The notes below the pieces were generated by a model. The model had not been told where the DNA came from, did no database searches, and saw only the letters and a program-made list of their open reading frames with translations. Below are positions 33,270 to 43,021 of a stretch of DNA of 60,658 nt, piece after piece. Location: assembly GCA_023129255.1 (NCBI GenBank), contig JAGMCH010000060.1, forward strand, positions 1 through 60,658, read 5' to 3'. Positions within the stretch are counted from its first letter, which is position 1. The number at the start of each line of letters is the position of its first letter. The translations under genes were made by a program, and so were the position numbers. This DNA comes from Dehalococcoidales bacterium (GTDB lineage Bacteria; Chloroflexota; Dehalococcoidia; Dehalococcoidales; BS750m-G39).

Positions 33270-34637
33270 CTATGAGCTTAAATCCCTGACCATATAGTCT
33301 CCCTGTAAGCTATAGCCAAATTCAGTGCGGTAGTATTCTCTGGCGCCAACGCCACTTAAGATTATCATTCTCGGCGCCTGAAATTCCTCACCGGCAATTC
33401 GCTCCGCCTCCCGGAGCAAGGCTTTACCCAGACCCTTATGCTGAGCTACCCCTTCTTTCTTCTCACTGAGGGGAACCTCAGGTCCGTAAACATGTAGTTC
33501 CCGTATCAAAGCCGAATTTCCATTGGTCTCTGGCTTGGATTGAATCCTCATCCGCAGCAAGCCAAACAGGGTTTCAGCTTCATCCTCAAAGGATAGAAAG
33601 ATTTCCCTGCCCCCTGAGGCTTCATAATCCATCCTCACCATCCGGGGCTCGCCTATTTCCCAGCCATCTCGTGCCCGATGACCATACTCCCGACAGCGGA
33701 TGCACTTACATTCAATCGCTCTCTGCTTCATTTGCTGCTTAATCACCCCACGCAGCGAGTCCTTGCAACCGGCGGTGATGAACTTGGCTGGAATATCACG
33801 CAACACCCGCGATATCCTGACATACTTGGGCACAATGGACTTAATATCAATCATCAGGTTGACCATAGTGCTGACCTCGTATGGCTGGTAGCGGTCTTCC
33901 CGATACCATCTCTCCAGCTCGGTGCCCTCGACCACCATGGTGGGATATAGCTTCAAGCCATCCGGTCTAAAGCGGTCATCATCAAACAGCTTTCTGGATA
34001 GCTCTAAATCATGCTCCGGGGTAGAGCCGGGAAGTCCTGGCATCCAGTGGTAGTGCACCTTAAAGCCATGCTCCCGGAGCAAAGCGGTAGCCTTGACCAC
34101 ATCCTCCACCTTATGCCCTCGCCTCGTCAGGCGGTAGATTTCATCATCTAAGATTTGAACCCCCAATTCCACCCTGGTGGTGCCAAACTGGAGCATCCTG
34201 TCTATTTCCTCCTGCTGGCACCAATCTGGTCTGGTCTCTATGCACAGCCCGGTGCAGCGGTGTTTGGCCGTTTCGTTGAGTCGCTTTGCCTCTTCCAGGT
34301 CTACCGACTCCTCGTTATTTAAGGCATCAAAGCAGTCCTTGATAAACTGGTATTGATAATCCTTGGGGTAAGCCAGGAAGGTGCCCCCCATCACTATCAG
34401 TTCAACCTTATCTGTTGGGTGCCCCATTTCGGACAGAACTTTTAGCCTTAGCTTAATCTGCTTCTTGGCATCAAAGCCGCACTTTATAGCTCGTAGCACT
34501 GCCGGCGACTCCGGGGTATAGCTCTGGGGAATAGCTGAGTAGGTGGGGCAATATATGCATTGTCCTGGGCATTTGAGGGGCAGGGTCATCACCGCCACCG
34601 GGGTAACCCCAGATATAGTCCTTGCAAATTTCTTCAT
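33270..34637 (-). CDS. elp3: Elp3-like radical SAM / GNAT tRNA U34 modification enzyme
   Basis: Radical SAM cluster CPGQCIYCP, central Elp3 core, and C-terminal GNAT QHKGLGKALLREAERIA. Start taken at MKKFARTISGVTPVAVMT (ATG 34637). Confidence 0.85.
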   Translation of the reverse strand: MKKFARTISGVTPVAVMTLPLKCPGQCIYCPTYSAIPQSYTPESPAVLRAIKCGFDAKKQIKLRLKVLSEMGHPTDKVELIVMGGTFLAYPKDYQYQFIKDCFDALNNEESVDLEEAKRLNETAKHRCTGLCIETRPDWCQQEEIDRMLQFGTTRVELGVQILDDEIYRLTRRGHKVEDVVKATALLREHGFKVHYHWMPGLPGSTPEHDLELSRKLFDDDRFRPDGLKLYPTMVVEGTELERWYREDRYQPYEVSTMVNLMIDIKSIVPKYVRISRVLRDIPAKFITAGCKDSLRGVIKQQMKQRAIECKCIRCREYGHRARDGWEIGEPRMVRMDYEASGGREIFLSFEDEAETLFGLLRMRIQSKPETNGNSALIRELHVYGPEVPLSEKKEGVAQHKGLGKALLREAERIAGEEFQAPRMIILSGVGAREYYRTEFGYSLQGDYMVRDLSS

Positions 34638-34748
34638 CTTATGCCATAAACAGTTTAGCAGATTAAAGCTGATGGCAACAACTAAAGTCATCTTTCAATT
34701 TATATCTTTCCCCACCCGCCGCCCTTAAGGAGGGGGGATAAAAGGAAG

Positions 34749-34880
34749 AGATTAAGAGGGACGAAGTCCCCCAGAAATAGCCTGCCTTGGAAATGGGGAG
34801 TTTAAGAGGGGGCGAAGCCCCTCTTCTAAAAAAACCTTCCCCCTTCCCCTTGAGGGGAAGGGGGATACAGGGGGATGGGG
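34749..34880 (+). repeat. GC-rich two-hairpin repeat (copy F3) preceded by a degenerate partial copy
   Basis: Degenerate GAGATTAAGAGGGACGAAGTCCCCC, then GGGGAGTTTAAGAGGGGGCGAAGCCCCTCTT and CCTTCCCCCTTCCCCTTGAGGGGAAGGGGGATACAGGGGGATGGGG. Confidence 0.8.
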
Positions 34881-35530
34881 TGAATAATAATAAAAATGTC
34901 TTCGACCAGATAGCCCCGAGCTGGTATAACTTCAGGCACTGGTCTATATTCCGCAGCGAGCTGGAAGCGCTGGCTCGTCGCTGGCAAAAAGGCAAACTGC
35001 TAAACATTGGCTGTGCCCATGGACCTGACTTCTTGCCTTTCAGGCAGGGCTTTGAGCTATATGGGGTGGACTTCTCGGCTGAGATGCTGAAGTTCGCTGA
35101 AAAATACTCCCAAAAATTTGGCTTTGTTGTCAATCTGACGCTGGCTGATGTCTGCCACCTTCCCTATCCCGACCAGACCTTTGACTGGGCAATATCGGTG
35201 GCTACCTATCACCATCTCAGGGGTGGGGAGCAGCCAGCGGCACTAAGTGAGCTCAAGCGGGTATTAAAGCCGGGCGGTGAAGCCTTTATCACGGTGTGGA
35301 ATCGGTGGCAGCCCAGGTTCTGGCTCAAACCGAAGGAGGTAGCTGTCCCTTGGCGAAAAAGGGGCAAGACCCTCTATCGCTACTACTACCTATTTTCTTA
35401 CCCCGAGCTGGGGAAGCTGGTGAAGAGGGCAGGCTTTGAGGTGCTTAAATCATTCCCCGAAAGCGCCTACCGCTTCCCGCTAAAGTTTTTTTCCCGAAAT
35501 ATTTGCCTGCTGGCGAAAAAGAGTGCTTAG
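34880..35530 (+). CDS. Class I SAM-dependent methyltransferase, Trm9-like
   Basis: VFDQIAPSWYNFRHW, LLNIGCAHG (motif I), LPYPDQTFDWAISVATYHHL and LKRVLKPGGEAFITVWN parallel the Trm9/ALKBH8 methyltransferase motifs. Start set at GTG 34880 because the longer ORF translates the repeat element. Confidence 0.65.
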   Translation: MNNNKNVFDQIAPSWYNFRHWSIFRSELEALARRWQKGKLLNIGCAHGPDFLPFRQGFELYGVDFSAEMLKFAEKYSQKFGFVVNLTLADVCHLPYPDQTFDWAISVATYHHLRGGEQPAALSELKRVLKPGGEAFITVWNRWQPRFWLKPKEVAVPWRKRGKTLYRYYYLFSYPELGKLVKRAGFEVLKSFPESAYRFPLKFFSRNICLLAKKSA

Positions 35531-35840: not shown

Positions 35841-35925
35841 CTCACCTCCTTAATCCCCCTCTCCTTACCAAGGAGAGGGGGAGAAATAAAAAAGAGGGGG
35901 CGAAACCCCCTCTTAAAACTACTTC
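35841..35925 (-). repeat. GC-rich two-hairpin repeat (reverse orientation, copy R3)
   Basis: CCCCCTCTCCTT-acc-AAGGAGAGGGGG, then AGAGGGGGCGAAACCCCCTCT followed by TAAAAC. Confidence 0.8.
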
Positions 35926-35947
35926 CCCCTTCCCCACTTGAGTCGGC

Positions 35948-36454
35948 TTAGCTTTTGGAGGTCCTGGTGTAGATGACAAGCTCGCTGCGGTGGAAGCCTA
36001 GCCTCTGGAAATAGTTCTGCAGTTCCCAGTGACGCTCGTCAATGACGGCGCGCACCGTGTTAACCCCCCTGGCGTGGCAGCGCTCGGCTAGGGCGTTGAC
36101 TAATCTGCCGGCAATACCCTGCCGTTGGTAGTCGGGGTCAACAATTATCATGTGGATGATGCCCACTTCATCAACTGGTATGCCGGCGAAGGCTAACCGG
36201 CCCCAGATAAAGCCAATGACCTGCCCATCGGCTTCAGCGACAAAACTCAAGTCGAGCGGACCTCCGGGGTTAGTCGAGGCTACCTCTTCGTAGGTCATGG
36301 TGCCTCTATAGCTAAGACGGCTCCGCTTGGTGCCGGGTATCTTTTCCTCCCTGATTTTGTCGTAAATAGCTAAAACGGCACTAATATCTCTACTCTCCAT
36401 GGGTCTGATATTTACCTCGCCTTTCTCTACATTCACCATAATAATCACCCCCAC
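35948..36454 (-). CDS. GNAT family N-acetyltransferase
   Basis: Acetyl-CoA motif VDPDYQRQGIAGRLV. Paralogue of 37082..37537. Confidence 0.85.
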   Translation of the reverse strand: MGVIIMVNVEKGEVNIRPMESRDISAVLAIYDKIREEKIPGTKRSRLSYRGTMTYEEVASTNPGGPLDLSFVAEADGQVIGFIWGRLAFAGIPVDEVGIIHMIIVDPDYQRQGIAGRLVNALAERCHARGVNTVRAVIDERHWELQNYFQRLGFHRSELVIYTRTSKS

Positions 36455-36613
36455 TTTATGTTTATCGGGACAAACTAACTACTTTCCAGAATAGGCTGCA
36501 TTATAATAACAGCTTCCCCACTTTTGTTCAATGTTCTTCTTGATTTTTCTTATAGACATGACGGCAGGTTTATGGTTTAATTAAATTTTGGAGTTAGAGG
36601 TAAGGAGAGACCG

Positions 36614-37087
36614 GTGGGTTTTGACTGGGAAGAAATAGGTAAATTTTTCTCCTACCTGATACCAGTAATTGTCCTTGTATTGGTCAATGTTTTCTTCCGC
36701 AAGCAGCAGGAACAGAAGAGGCGGCTGACCGTGGTTAAAAGCCTGCTATCTGAGATAGACCATAACCAGAAGCTTATGGAAGCCTTCCTCTTTCAGTGGC
36801 AAACCAAGAAGTTTAAGACCGGTGGCTGGAAGAGAAATAGGGATAAAATGGATTATATAGACCGGGGTTTGCACGCTACTCTGGCTGGCGCCTATGAAAT
36901 TGCTGAAGAGTTCAATAAGGAGATAGATACGGCTAAGAAGCATAGGTCGGCGAGCTACCTGGCAGGTATCCGGGTGGATAGATTGAGAGAGCCACTGGCT
37001 AAGAGTAAACAGGGGCTTGAGGAATGGCTTGAGCTAAATAAGGGGAGGAAAAAGCCAGCCGAAGAGGGCAGTGATTCGACTTCATAA
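36614..37087 (+). CDS. Hypothetical membrane-anchored protein (157 aa)
   Basis: GTG after GGTAAGGAGAG. One N-terminal TM helix. Its 3' end overlaps the convergent GNAT gene by 6 nt. Confidence 0.5.
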   Translation: MGFDWEEIGKFFSYLIPVIVLVLVNVFFRKQQEQKRRLTVVKSLLSEIDHNQKLMEAFLFQWQTKKFKTGGWKRNRDKMDYIDRGLHATLAGAYEIAEEFNKEIDTAKKHRSASYLAGIRVDRLREPLAKSKQGLEEWLELNKGRKKPAEEGSDSTS

Positions 37088-37537
37088 GGTCTTGGTGTAG
37101 TCTATAAGCTGTCCCCGTTTAAAGCCCATATGGGCGAAGAACGGCTGTAGCTGGCTATCACGTTCGGTAATCATTATCCGCACTGTGTTAAGCTTCTTGG
37201 CCTGGCAGGCGTCCAACAGGGCATTGACCAGTTTGGTGGCAATACCCTGGTGCCAGTAATCGGGGTCAACGCCCAGAATTTGAATCAATCCCACCTCAGC
37301 CACCGGTTCCCCAACATACACCCGCCGAGCCAAGATAAAGCCGGCTATCTGACCATCGACCTCGGCGATAAAACTGAGGTCAAGCACCCCTCCCAGGTCT
37401 CCGGTAATCAAATCTGTATAGGTAACAGCCCTCCGCACCCCGCTGATTTTCCTGTCGATAGCTAAAACATTGTCAATATCCTCAGGTTCCATGGGTCGGA
37501 TTCTTACTTTACTTTCCTTTCTTTCTATGGCCGTCAC
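37082..37537 (-). CDS. GNAT family N-acetyltransferase (paralogue)
   Basis: VDPDYWHQGIATKLV motif. Collinear similarity to 35948..36454 (IRPME..D..VLAI, LDLSF.AE.DGQ). Minus-strand promoter upstream reads TTGACA (37610-37615), 17 nt, ATAATA (37587-37592). Confidence 0.85.
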   Translation of the reverse strand: MTAIERKESKVRIRPMEPEDIDNVLAIDRKISGVRRAVTYTDLITGDLGGVLDLSFIAEVDGQIAGFILARRVYVGEPVAEVGLIQILGVDPDYWHQGIATKLVNALLDACQAKKLNTVRIMITERDSQLQPFFAHMGFKRGQLIDYTKTL

Positions 37538-37680
37538 GGTGAACGCCTCCTTCCTCCAATTAAGGGGTGCGTTTTTATGTATGCATCGTATTATCCGCTT
37601 TTTTTTACTTTTGTCAATAGGTTATTGATTTAATCCTTGACCTATTTTGGGGGTCAAGTTATTATCACCACTGAGGCTTT

Positions 37681-38535
37681 ATGAAAAGGACGGGAATATT
37701 TTTTGCCTATTTCCTGGGGGAGAGGCTGAGGGATTTCCCTCAGGCATTGGAGGGCATCCTGGATAAGGAAAATATATCATATTATGACGCCGTTTATGAC
37801 TCTGGCGATGGACTTTGCTATGTAGCACCGGCGCCTGAGGAATTGCTGCTCAAGGTGCATTCCCCAGCTATGGTGCAGAGGGTAAGGCTGACCGGCGACT
37901 ATGAATCGGCTTTATACTCAGCCGGGGGTACAGTTCAGGCAGCCGACAAAATCTATCACGGGAAAATAGATAGCGCCTTTGTTTTTACCAGCTTTGGTGA
38001 CCACCATGCCGGCAGAAATTTTTATGGCGGGATGTGTTATTTCAATGGTGTTGCCTTAGCTATAGCCGCTCTCAGGGAGAAGGGGGTGGGGCGGTTCGCT
38101 ATCGTGGATACCGATAGCCATCACGGCGATGGCACCAGGGACATCTTTGCCGCTGACGATGATGTGCTTCATGTATGCCTTTGTTCTCAGGATTACCTTG
38201 ATGAACATAACAATGTGGATGTCATGATTCCATATAACACCTCAGACGAGGAGTATCTTGCCCGGATGAGGCAGGAATTTGTTCCCAGAGCCATAGCCTT
38301 TAAGCCAGAGTATATTTTCTGGGAATTTGGCTATGATGCTACCCAGGGGGAGTATGGAGACAAGGGTTTGACCGGGGATTGCCACCTTGAGCTGGCAAGG
38401 CTCATCAAGGGGGTGGCGGATGAGGTCTGTCACGGCAGACTAGTTGCTATCCTGTGCGGTGGCTCAGGACGAGCTCTGGCTACATACACTATACCCAGGA
38501 TTATTGATTGTCTGGCTGAGCTGGGGAGGTTCTAG
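37681..38535 (+). CDS. Histone deacetylase / acetoin-utilisation family (arginase-deacetylase fold) protein
   Basis: FGDHHAG and DTDSHHGDGTRDIF metal and catalytic motifs. At 284 aa it is short for the family. Confidence 0.8.
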   Translation: MKRTGIFFAYFLGERLRDFPQALEGILDKENISYYDAVYDSGDGLCYVAPAPEELLLKVHSPAMVQRVRLTGDYESALYSAGGTVQAADKIYHGKIDSAFVFTSFGDHHAGRNFYGGMCYFNGVALAIAALREKGVGRFAIVDTDSHHGDGTRDIFAADDDVLHVCLCSQDYLDEHNNVDVMIPYNTSDEEYLARMRQEFVPRAIAFKPEYIFWEFGYDATQGEYGDKGLTGDCHLELARLIKGVADEVCHGRLVAILCGGSGRALATYTIPRIIDCLAELGRF

Positions 38536-42449: not shown

Positions 42450-42487
42450 AGGGGGAGCCCTTCAAAGAAGGGCTCCCCCTATTTTAT
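42450..42487 (+). terminator. Rho-independent terminator
   Basis: AGGGGGAGCCC-ttcaaagaa-GGGCTCCCCCT followed by ATTTTAT. Abuts the convergent queH stop. Confidence 0.7.
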
Positions 42488-43021
42488 GGTTATATTGGCA
42501 TAGCGTTCCCACTCACTATAGACGCAGCCGCAGTATTGCTGGCGGTGGAGATTCAATGGCTTGGTCATCCGGCGGCTATCTGAGTAGCGCTTCCTGAGGT
42601 CGGCATAGAGGAAATCTATGCCCCTTTCCCCAGCCAGCTCATTGCCAATCTCCTGGAGAAGGTCATGCTTCTGGTGGGGGCTGATGAGCAGGGTGGTGGT
42701 GAAAGCGTCAAAGCCCATCGCTTTAGCGGTTTCAGCCGTTTTTGACAGCCGTAGCCGGAAGCAGTACCGACAGCGCTCGGATTCATGCCCCACTACTTGG
42801 CGAAAGTAATCAATGATGTCATAGCCGCTAGTGGTTATTAAGGGCAGGCTCATTTCTTGAGCCAGCGTCTGCATTGCCTCCAGGCGGTGCTGGTGCTCCA
42901 TATAGGGGTGGATATTGGGATTATACCACAGGGCGCTGACCTCGTACCCCTGCTGGCGCCAGTGGCTAACGGTATAGGCGGCGCAGTGGGCGCAGCAGCT
43001 ATGAAGTAGCACTTTTTTCAT
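42479..43021 (-). CDS. queH: Epoxyqueuosine reductase QueH
   Basis: LLHSCCAHCA N-terminal motif, conserved Cys pattern (..ERCRYCF.., ..QQYCGC..), 180 aa (DUF208 family). Confidence 0.85.
   Translation of the reverse strand: MKKVLLHSCCAHCAAYTVSHWRQQGYEVSALWYNPNIHPYMEHQHRLEAMQTLAQEMSLPLITTSGYDIIDYFRQVVGHESERCRYCFRLRLSKTAETAKAMGFDAFTTTLLISPHQKHDLLQEIGNELAGERGIDFLYADLRKRYSDSRRMTKPLNLHRQQYCGCVYSEWERYANITIK

Follow-up and report, generated by a model that had tools for sequence, protein, structure and literature searches.

Within a 60,658-nucleotide contig (JAGMCH010000060.1 of assembly GCA_023129255.1; hereafter, the window) from an uncultured Dehalococcoidales bacterium, two genes are transcribed away from each other. 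One encodes Elp3 on the minus strand (33270..34637), and the other encodes a class I S-adenosylmethionine (SAM)-dependent methyltransferase on the plus strand (34880..35530). A preliminary description of this DNA, made from its letters alone, had proposed a divergent pairing of Elp3 with a Trm9-like methyltransferase, and the two genes are indeed arranged in this way. Elp3 is an enzyme of the archaeal/eukaryotic type; members of its family employ acetyl-CoA in a radical SAM reaction whose product is 5-carboxymethyluridine at the wobble position of tRNA (cm5U34).

An intact Elp3 at the locus

The longest open reading frame (ORF) around the Elp3 gene spans 33270..34691 on the minus strand (473 codons). 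We take ATG 34637 (MKKFARTISGV...) to be the real start because the alignment to the Elp3 of Dehalococcoides mccartyi (DmcElp3; Protein Data Bank [PDB] code 5L7J) begins there; this codon coincides with residue 1 of DmcElp3 and of all relatives. The resulting protein has 455 amino acids, joins a radical SAM domain to a Gcn5-related N-acetyltransferase (GNAT)/lysine acetyltransferase (KAT) domain, and belongs to the short-N-terminus type, like DmcElp3. It scored 577.6 bits against the NCBIfam model TIGR01211 (cut-off, 350) over model positions 57 to 521 of 522, which confirms the Elp3 gene that had been claimed from 33270 onward. Pfam assigned PF04055 (Radical_SAM) and PF16199 (Radical_SAM_C), and the Pfam GNAT match was weak on its own (17.7 bits). 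The top PDB match was DmcElp3 (5L7J; E = 1.6e-199), with 66% identity. The Fe-S motif CxxxCxxC is present as CPGQCIYC at residues 23 to 30, aligned with C23, C27, and C30 of DmcElp3. All residues named as forming the acetyl-CoA pocket of DmcElp3 (K77, K193, E386, and Y441; PMC6367351) are kept, as K77, K193, E380, and Y435, respectively. Judged by its sequence, this gene is a true Elp3 with its catalytic residues intact. Bacterial Elp3 of this clade is already known, and the Elp3 gene itself is no novelty. Earlier work on the Dehalococcoides enzyme was reportedly carried out by Glatt et al. in 2016. D. mccartyi Elp3 is well studied: according to the literature, it binds tRNA, and its acetyl-CoA hydrolysis is triggered by tRNA, while Lin et al. 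(2019; PMC6367351) describe bacterial Elp3s as rare and DmcElp3 as one such case.

The methyltransferase resembles Trm9

The methyltransferase gene encodes 216 amino acids from GTG 34880, a start that was also picked by gene callers and that has a G-rich, Shine-Dalgarno-like stretch just 5' of it. An in-frame TTG farther upstream, at 34787, would add 31 residues encoded by repeats. The preliminary description had placed this protein with Trm9 rather than with generic methyltransferases on the strength of three motifs, and all three are found in the translation of 34880..35530. Pfam and NCBIfam returned only generic class I models (Methyltransf_11/25, with 72 bits for Methyltransf_11) and no Trm9-specific model; therefore, we tested family membership by other routes.

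In a single-sequence search of the PDB, Yarrowia Trm9 (5cm2_Z) ranked third, after two uncharacterized structural-genomics proteins, and it alone of these three aligned into the C-terminal half of the protein (residues 41 to 191). When a family profile built from 21 members (48 to 100% identity) was used as the query, 5cm2_Z came first (1.4e-21, 80 bits) and aligned over positions 40 to 195, including the C-terminal VPW and RYY region. The next match, the uncharacterized PH0226 (76 bits), covered the Rossmann core only. In the reciprocal search, a fragment of Yarrowia Trm9 cut from the PDB alignment matched the methyltransferase in its own genome at 5e-14 (64 bits), and the next match had an E value of 0.035. 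Identity to Trm9 is approximately 25 to 30%. Profile comparison with other class I families, which had been named as a check, left UbiE/MenG, ArsM, BioC, and TehB identities rejected, since the best UbiE model (NF001244) scored 42 bits against a cut-off of 216 and all 25 listed models were far below theirs.

Mutagenesis has shown that yeast Trm9 needs R29, D72, H116, W145, W168, R241, Y243, and N271 (Letoquart et al. 2015; PMC4678810), and that H115 is milder, with the alanine mutant retaining about one-quarter of wild-type activity (PMC4678810). In the HMMER alignment to 5cm2_Z, residues D64, H111-H112, W140, W158, R167, and Y169 of the methyltransferase align with yeast D72, H115/H116, W145, W168, R241, and Y243. 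D64 corresponds to the SAM-binding acidic residue (D83 in Yarrowia Trm9, D72 in yeast) and is invariant. The six equivalents of essential residues are each invariant or conserved at more than 90% among 81 homologs, and H111 is invariant too. The equivalents of yeast R29 and N271 fall outside the alignable region, as the crystallized chain lacks the N terminus and the alignments end before N222. By position only, R19 (invariant in alignment A2 and at least 90% conserved in A1) is a candidate for the R29 equivalent, and N207, which is invariant and opens the last strand, is a candidate for the N271 equivalent.

An AlphaFold2 (AF2) model of the methyltransferase (predicted local distance difference test [pLDDT] score, 88.9) has Rossmann topology. 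In a Foldseek search with this model, 5cm2_Z ranked second and had the highest target-normalized template modeling (TM) score (0.82); dozens of class I methyltransferases lay within two orders of magnitude, and the structure search is thus nondiscriminating. The Joint Genome Institute (JGI) pipeline names many homologs with 80 to 90% identity "tRNA (uracil-5-)-methyltransferase TRM9," and other annotations read "class I SAM-dependent methyltransferase" or UbiE. The identical 216-amino-acid protein is present on 5 contigs, and the ratio of nonsynonymous to synonymous substitution rates (dN/dS) against seven relatives is 0.09 to 0.13, indicative of purifying selection. Collectively, the family profile, which puts Trm9 first and aligns it through the C-terminal half, and the conserved residues support the initial interpretation of this protein as a bacterial member of the Trm9 family.

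Elp3 and the methyltransferase occur together and exclude MnmG

To describe the distribution of the pair, a single sample of 301 species-level Dehalococcoidia genomes was used for Elp3 (matches above cut-off), the methyltransferase (E ≤ 1e-20), and MnmG. Elp3 is found in 45 of these genomes and the methyltransferase in 44, counts that do not represent independent events because the sampled genomes are kin. Every genome with the methyltransferase also has Elp3 (44/45 Elp3-positive and 0/256 Elp3-negative genomes), and in the sole Elp3-positive genome without it, the contig ends 1.4 kb from Elp3. In 39 of the 44, Elp3 and the methyltransferase are direct neighbors in divergent orientation. With the methyltransferase profile, we retrieved loci from 80 further species, all of them close relatives within the Dehalococcoidia and hence suited to adjacency statistics rather than to distant taxa. 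A divergent Elp3 lies upstream in 70 of these loci, 8 have no flank, and 2 have no Elp3 even though their upstream sequence exceeds 2.9 kb, so that the arrangement holds in 70 of the 72 loci with enough flank. Co-occurrence across Elp3-bearing genomes had been put forward as a check of the proposed pairing, and these counts bear the pairing out. In a tree of Elp3 proteins, the crystallized DmcElp3 stands beside that of genome G055, and the same methyltransferase neighbor lies approximately 60 bp from the G055 Elp3; therefore, the structurally studied Elp3 also has a methyltransferase partner.

MnmG is present in 94 of the 301 genomes, and its overlap with Elp3 is zero. Neither Elp3 nor MnmG was found in 162 genomes. 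The Dehalococcoidia that lack both include whole families of 17 genomes.

Other wobble uridine modification genes in the same genome

The genome to which the window belongs is a metagenome-assembled genome (MAG) that is 90.8% complete. It yielded no MnmG and no MnmE above the cut-off. MnmA is encoded (TIGR00420, 371 bits; NF001138, 428 bits), and the single PF01171-type PP-loop protein in the genome is of TilS size, so there is no thiolase of the Ncs6/TtuA type. U34 tRNAs are present for Lys, Glu, Gln, Arg, Gly, and Leu and for four-codon boxes. We also considered a CmoM-like role for the methyltransferase, i.e., methylation of the carboxyl group of uridine 5-oxyacetic acid (cmo5U), and rejected it: nothing in this genome matched the CmoB model TIGR00452, and in 10 relatives no match exceeded the cut-off.

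An archaeal-type Trm112, a 60-amino-acid zinc-knuckle protein, is encoded on another contig (C44:13338-13481; L005 1498-1680) and scored 102 bits against NF038101 (cut-off, 77) versus 31 bits against bacterial YcaR. Its gene adjoins queD, folK, and folP-like genes. Archaeal-type Trm112 was also found in 5/5 tested Dehalococcoidia genomes without Elp3, and it was not found in the pair-bearing genomes G055, G098, and G241 (two of the Elp3-positive genomes being closed). For these reasons, we regard Trm112 as common to the class and not as a specific partner, and we rejected it as a third linked component of the system. In eukaryotes and Haloferax, Trm112 is an obligate partner of Trm9. Because Trm112 does not covary with the pair here, the methyltransferase probably works without a strict need for it. 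The queH gene that had been pointed out nearby is real (PF02677, 194 bits; 42479-43021, 7 kb from the pair); it belongs to a different tRNA modification pathway, however, and is irrelevant to that of U34.

The pair extends to other Chloroflexota and to DPANN archaea

Elp3 had been called rare in bacteria, a view that does not hold inside this phylum: 70 of 401 sampled Chloroflexota genomes carry it, 41 of them outside the Dehalococcoidia, and in one family it is present in 24 of 24. The close methyltransferase family (E ≤ 1e-25) is restricted to the Dehalococcoidia in this survey. Diverged versions of the pair exist beyond the class, which extends the conservation of the pairing. Among five inspected Elp3-positive Chloroflexota genomes outside the Dehalococcoidia, four of Anaerolineae type (G370, G531, G340, and G386; L119-L124) have a divergent methyltransferase of 246 to 259 amino acids adjoining Elp3. 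These proteins are 24 to 31% identical to the window protein, carry an N-terminal SFSATR motif, and match the Trm9 fragment at 4e-12 to 2e-5; their relatives are labeled Brevefilum sp. (Anaerolineae) by NCBI and TRM9 by JGI. The accompanying Elp3 proteins are longer (560 to 638 amino acids), with an N-terminal extension like that of archaeal Elp3, and are approximately 41% identical to the window Elp3. No MnmG was found in any of the five inspected non-Dehalococcoidia Elp3-positive Chloroflexota genomes.

When 1.8 billion cluster representatives were searched with a profile, the nearest relatives of the methyltransferase outside the Dehalococcoidia proved to be in DPANN archaea (Pacearchaeota, Woesearchaeota, Diapherotrites, and Nanoarchaeia). 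Among seven DPANN contexts, three (L128, L132, and L133; e.g., CP061211.1) have a divergent Elp3 of 450 to 456 amino acids at a distance of 42 to 55 bp, one has Elp3 1.7 kb away, and three have no Elp3 nearby. In the three divergent pairs, Elp3 is short and without the basic N-terminal extension, as in DmcElp3. The methyltransferases of the DPANN pairs are 36 to 44% identical to the window protein. One Pacearchaeota Elp3 scored 587 bits against TIGR01211, is 52% identical to the window Elp3, and has the same short N terminus; the methyltransferase next to it is 43% identical to that of the window. In a small, thinly sampled Elp3 tree, the Dehalococcoidia and DPANN proteins group together (Shimodaira-Hasegawa-like approximate likelihood ratio test [SH-aLRT] support, 93), apart from the Anaerolineae-type and M. 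infernus Elp3. This grouping suggests that Elp3 and the methyltransferase moved as a unit between DPANN archaea and bacteria; the methyltransferase tree has long branches and no resolved transfer direction, and we claim none.

Repeats separate the methyltransferase from its ancestral start

The present start codons of Elp3 and the methyltransferase are 242 nucleotides (nt) apart, whereas the divergent starts of relatives with compact loci are separated by 27 to 47 nt. The gap of about 240 nt filled with repeats that the preliminary description reported is therefore correct in length and content; however, most of it is not ancestral spacer, as approximately 208 bp of repeats interrupt the methyltransferase gene near its 5' end and the ancestral spacer measures only 33 to 34 nt. 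That spacer (34638..34671) carries a conserved motif of about 20 nt, CATAAACAGTTTAGCAGATT, which is shared by 15 relatives with starts 27 to 56 nt apart (L050, L061, L103, L115, and others, at 70 to 87% protein identity). It is a probable shared promoter or leader region, and the motif may serve as a shared promoter, leader, or operator; a consensus scan of the intergenic region found no sigma-70-like promoter.

On the plus strand, the spacer is followed by the orphaned ancestral start of the methyltransferase (MATTK...), ATGGCAACAACTAAAG at 34672, which is almost identical to the methyltransferase start of L050 and L061 (MATTKDIFNQIAP). Homology to the relatives is lost past codon 5, where the repeat insertion of approximately 208 bp begins, and the gene resumes at GTG 34880. 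The orphaned start is out of frame with the present gene and now opens an 18-codon ORF (34672..34728) that ends at TAA 34726-34728. The break in homology extends to about 34894, i.e., within the present reading frame. The insertion consists of dispersed GC-rich hairpin repeats resembling repetitive extragenic palindromic (REP) elements (34688..34879), recognized from repeat copies and by comparison with compact relatives. Copies lie at 34741 and 34791, and the segment 34804-34849 recurs at 35892-35935, just downstream of the methyltransferase; when up to 4 mismatches are allowed, a 23-nt repeat core has 26 copies in the genome. Within the repeat cluster, the minus strand bears a terminator-like hairpin (34865-34838) that has a 12-bp GC stem and then a T-run and points to Elp3. 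If functional, it would insulate Elp3 from transcription on the methyltransferase side. Many relatives have expansions of 100 to 500 bp at the same position and retain both genes.

Downstream of the methyltransferase (35948-38535) are two paralogous GNAT genes (168 and 151 amino acids) and a 284-amino-acid gene of the histone deacetylase family, for which we saw no link to the pair.

Discussion

In our view, the divergent genes are likely to be a module that builds the C5 side chain of the wobble uridine in two steps. The comparisons show which genes these are, which residues are conserved, that the two genes co-occur and adjoin, and that Elp3 and MnmG exclude each other; every chemical step in this organism is inferred. 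In the first step, Elp3 would form cm5U34 from acetyl-CoA by radical SAM chemistry. The Trm9-family methyltransferase would then move a methyl group from SAM to the carboxylate of cm5, yielding 5-methoxycarbonylmethyluridine (mcm5U34), and MnmA would add the 2-thio (s2) group on tRNA-Lys(UUU), tRNA-Glu(UUC), and tRNA-Gln(UUG) to give mcm5s2U. In this lineage, the module would replace the usual bacterial MnmE/MnmG route. The new element supported by our comparisons is a bacterial Trm9-family member tightly coupled to Elp3, which would imply an mcm5U/mcm5s2U pathway in place of MnmEG. These bacteria probably make mcm5U-type tRNA modifications. Our full-text searches found no paper on a Trm9-like neighbor of a bacterial Elp3; Glatt et al. 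2016 was outside their reach, and a mention there is possible.

The window Elp3 is an orthologue of DmcElp3 (PDB codes 5L7J, 5L7L, and 6IA6; Glatt et al. 2016, Lin et al. 2019), with which it shares, besides its overall identity, the short N terminus (MKK..RTISGVTP), the Fe-S cysteines, and the acetyl-CoA pocket; only the host differs, being an uncultured Dehalococcoidales MAG. The methyltransferase neighbor goes unmentioned in the DmcElp3 papers PMC6367351 and PMC7663514. Its eukaryotic counterparts would be Trm9-Trm112 (Saccharomyces cerevisiae; Yarrowia lipolytica, PDB code 5CM2) and ALKBH8-TRMT112, which convert cm5U34 to mcm5U34 and act genetically downstream of Elp3. The window protein has the same class I fold, with seven tested residues aligned, but it is shorter, lacks the insertions of the yeast protein and ALKBH8, and lacks AlkB and RNA recognition motif (RRM) domains. 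Moreover, Trm112 does not consistently accompany it, and for thiolation it would be partnered by bacterial MnmA instead of Ncs6/Urm1.

Archaea offer a closer parallel. In Sulfolobus solfataricus, the Elp3 and Trm9 genes are clustered (Grosjean 2008; PMC2584109), and in Haloferax volcanii, HvoTrm9 (HVO_1032) with Trm112 makes mcm5U (van Tran 2018; PMC6144793). As in archaea, Elp3 here stands alone, without other Elongator subunits, and is clustered with a Trm9 homolog; the DPANN pairs share even the divergent order and the short Elp3. The host, however, is a bacterium with MnmA thiolation, and unlike HvoTrm9, which needs Trm112 in vivo (PMC6144793), the Dehalococcoidia pair is not tracked by Trm112. 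MnmE and MnmG, which make 5-carboxymethylaminomethyluridine (cmnm5U) and 5-aminomethyluridine (nm5U), likewise act on C5 of U34 and fill the same biological role, but they are unrelated to the enzymes of the Elp3 module and install an unrelated side chain, and none of the 301 Dehalococcoidia genomes sampled has both MnmG and Elp3.

Several points weigh against a cm5U-to-mcm5U module. Direct evidence for cm5U34 derivatives (xcm5U34) in these bacteria is absent, and the in vitro activity of DmcElp3 is very weak (PMC7663514). Pfam and NCBIfam returned generic models only and no curated Trm9 model, the margin of Trm9 over uncharacterized methyltransferases among solved structures is small (80 versus 76 bits), and in the Foldseek search, an uncharacterized Clostridium methyltransferase (2p8j) came out ahead of Trm9. 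Homology-based naming has misled before in Haloferax, where the Trm9 call Hvo_0574 was inactive and HVO_1032 proved to be the real enzyme (PMC6144793). Trm112 does not covary with the pair and was not found in two closed Elp3-positive genomes, and the repeat insertion removed the original start and leader of the methyltransferase gene. The absence of MnmG from the window's own genome is, by itself, a weak argument because the MAG is 90.8% complete; the class-wide pattern carries it.

The methyltransferase could instead be tied to Elp3 and catalyze another reaction, acting on another Elp3-derived intermediate, on another atom of the same nucleotide, or on a related derivative of the C5-methylene type (xm5U), with an end product other than mcm5U. 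The low identity to Trm9, the position of the R29 and N271 equivalents outside the alignable region, and the fact that Y169 (yeast Y243) is not conserved in the Anaerolineae-type proteins would all suit such an enzyme, as would the U34 chemistry of H. volcanii, which is more complex than predicted, with cm5U quickly turned into unknown products (PMC6144793). We nonetheless think this unlikely, given that the carboxylate-positioning H112 (yeast H116), H111 (yeast H115), the candidate R29 equivalent R19, and the uridine-stacking W140 and W158 are conserved, and that no other enzyme of known xm5U chemistry was found in the genome.

It is quite improbable that the protein is an unrelated small-molecule or protein methyltransferase merely sharing a compact bidirectional promoter region with Elp3. 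An enzyme of that kind could show generic Methyltransf_11/25 matches only, have an uncharacterized Clostridium protein as its best Foldseek match, and be called UbiE by some annotators, all of which is true of this family. It would not be expected to follow Elp3 in 44/45 versus 0/256 genomes, to keep its head-to-head order in Dehalococcoidia, Anaerolineae-type Chloroflexota, and DPANN despite 24 to 44% identity, to fall far below the cut-offs of the UbiE, ArsM, and BioC models, or to conserve Trm9-specific residues. We find it very unlikely that the module is impaired in this genome, with repeats severing the methyltransferase from its start and leader, a hairpin facing Elp3, and one or both genes poorly expressed. 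The orphaned, out-of-frame ancestral start with its stop at 34726, the minus-strand hairpin and T-run at 34865-34838, and the lack of a detected sigma-70-like promoter do fit that picture. Nevertheless, the methyltransferase reading frame is intact and evolves at a dN/dS of 0.09 to 0.13 against seven relatives, the identical protein recurs on 5 contigs, GTG 34880 is preceded by a Shine-Dalgarno-like G-rich stretch, and many relatives with gaps of 100 to 500 bp at the same place keep both genes.

Beyond the two-step module, a wider hybrid pathway can be proposed, which we hold to have about an even chance of being correct. An archaeal-type cassette of short Elp3 and Trm9, which DPANN archaea would have in common with these bacteria as one unit, would have replaced MnmEG and would feed MnmA with no obligatory Trm112; the resulting mcm5U and mcm5s2U would decode split codon boxes in the Dehalococcoidia and, separately, in other Chloroflexota. 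If true, an mcm5U-type wobble modification would be demonstrated in bacteria for the first time, and the pair would provide a natural minimal Elp3-Trm9 system in which the structure of Elp3 is already solved. Trm9 activity independent of Trm112, if real, would be of mechanistic interest. The second enzyme beside the crystallized DmcElp3 now has a putative name, and a Trm9-like partner leads to a testable prediction of the end product, namely, mcm5U, or mcm5s2U with MnmA. Our comparisons also indicate that the Elp3/Trm9-like module is a stable alternative to MnmEG in several lineages of the Chloroflexota.

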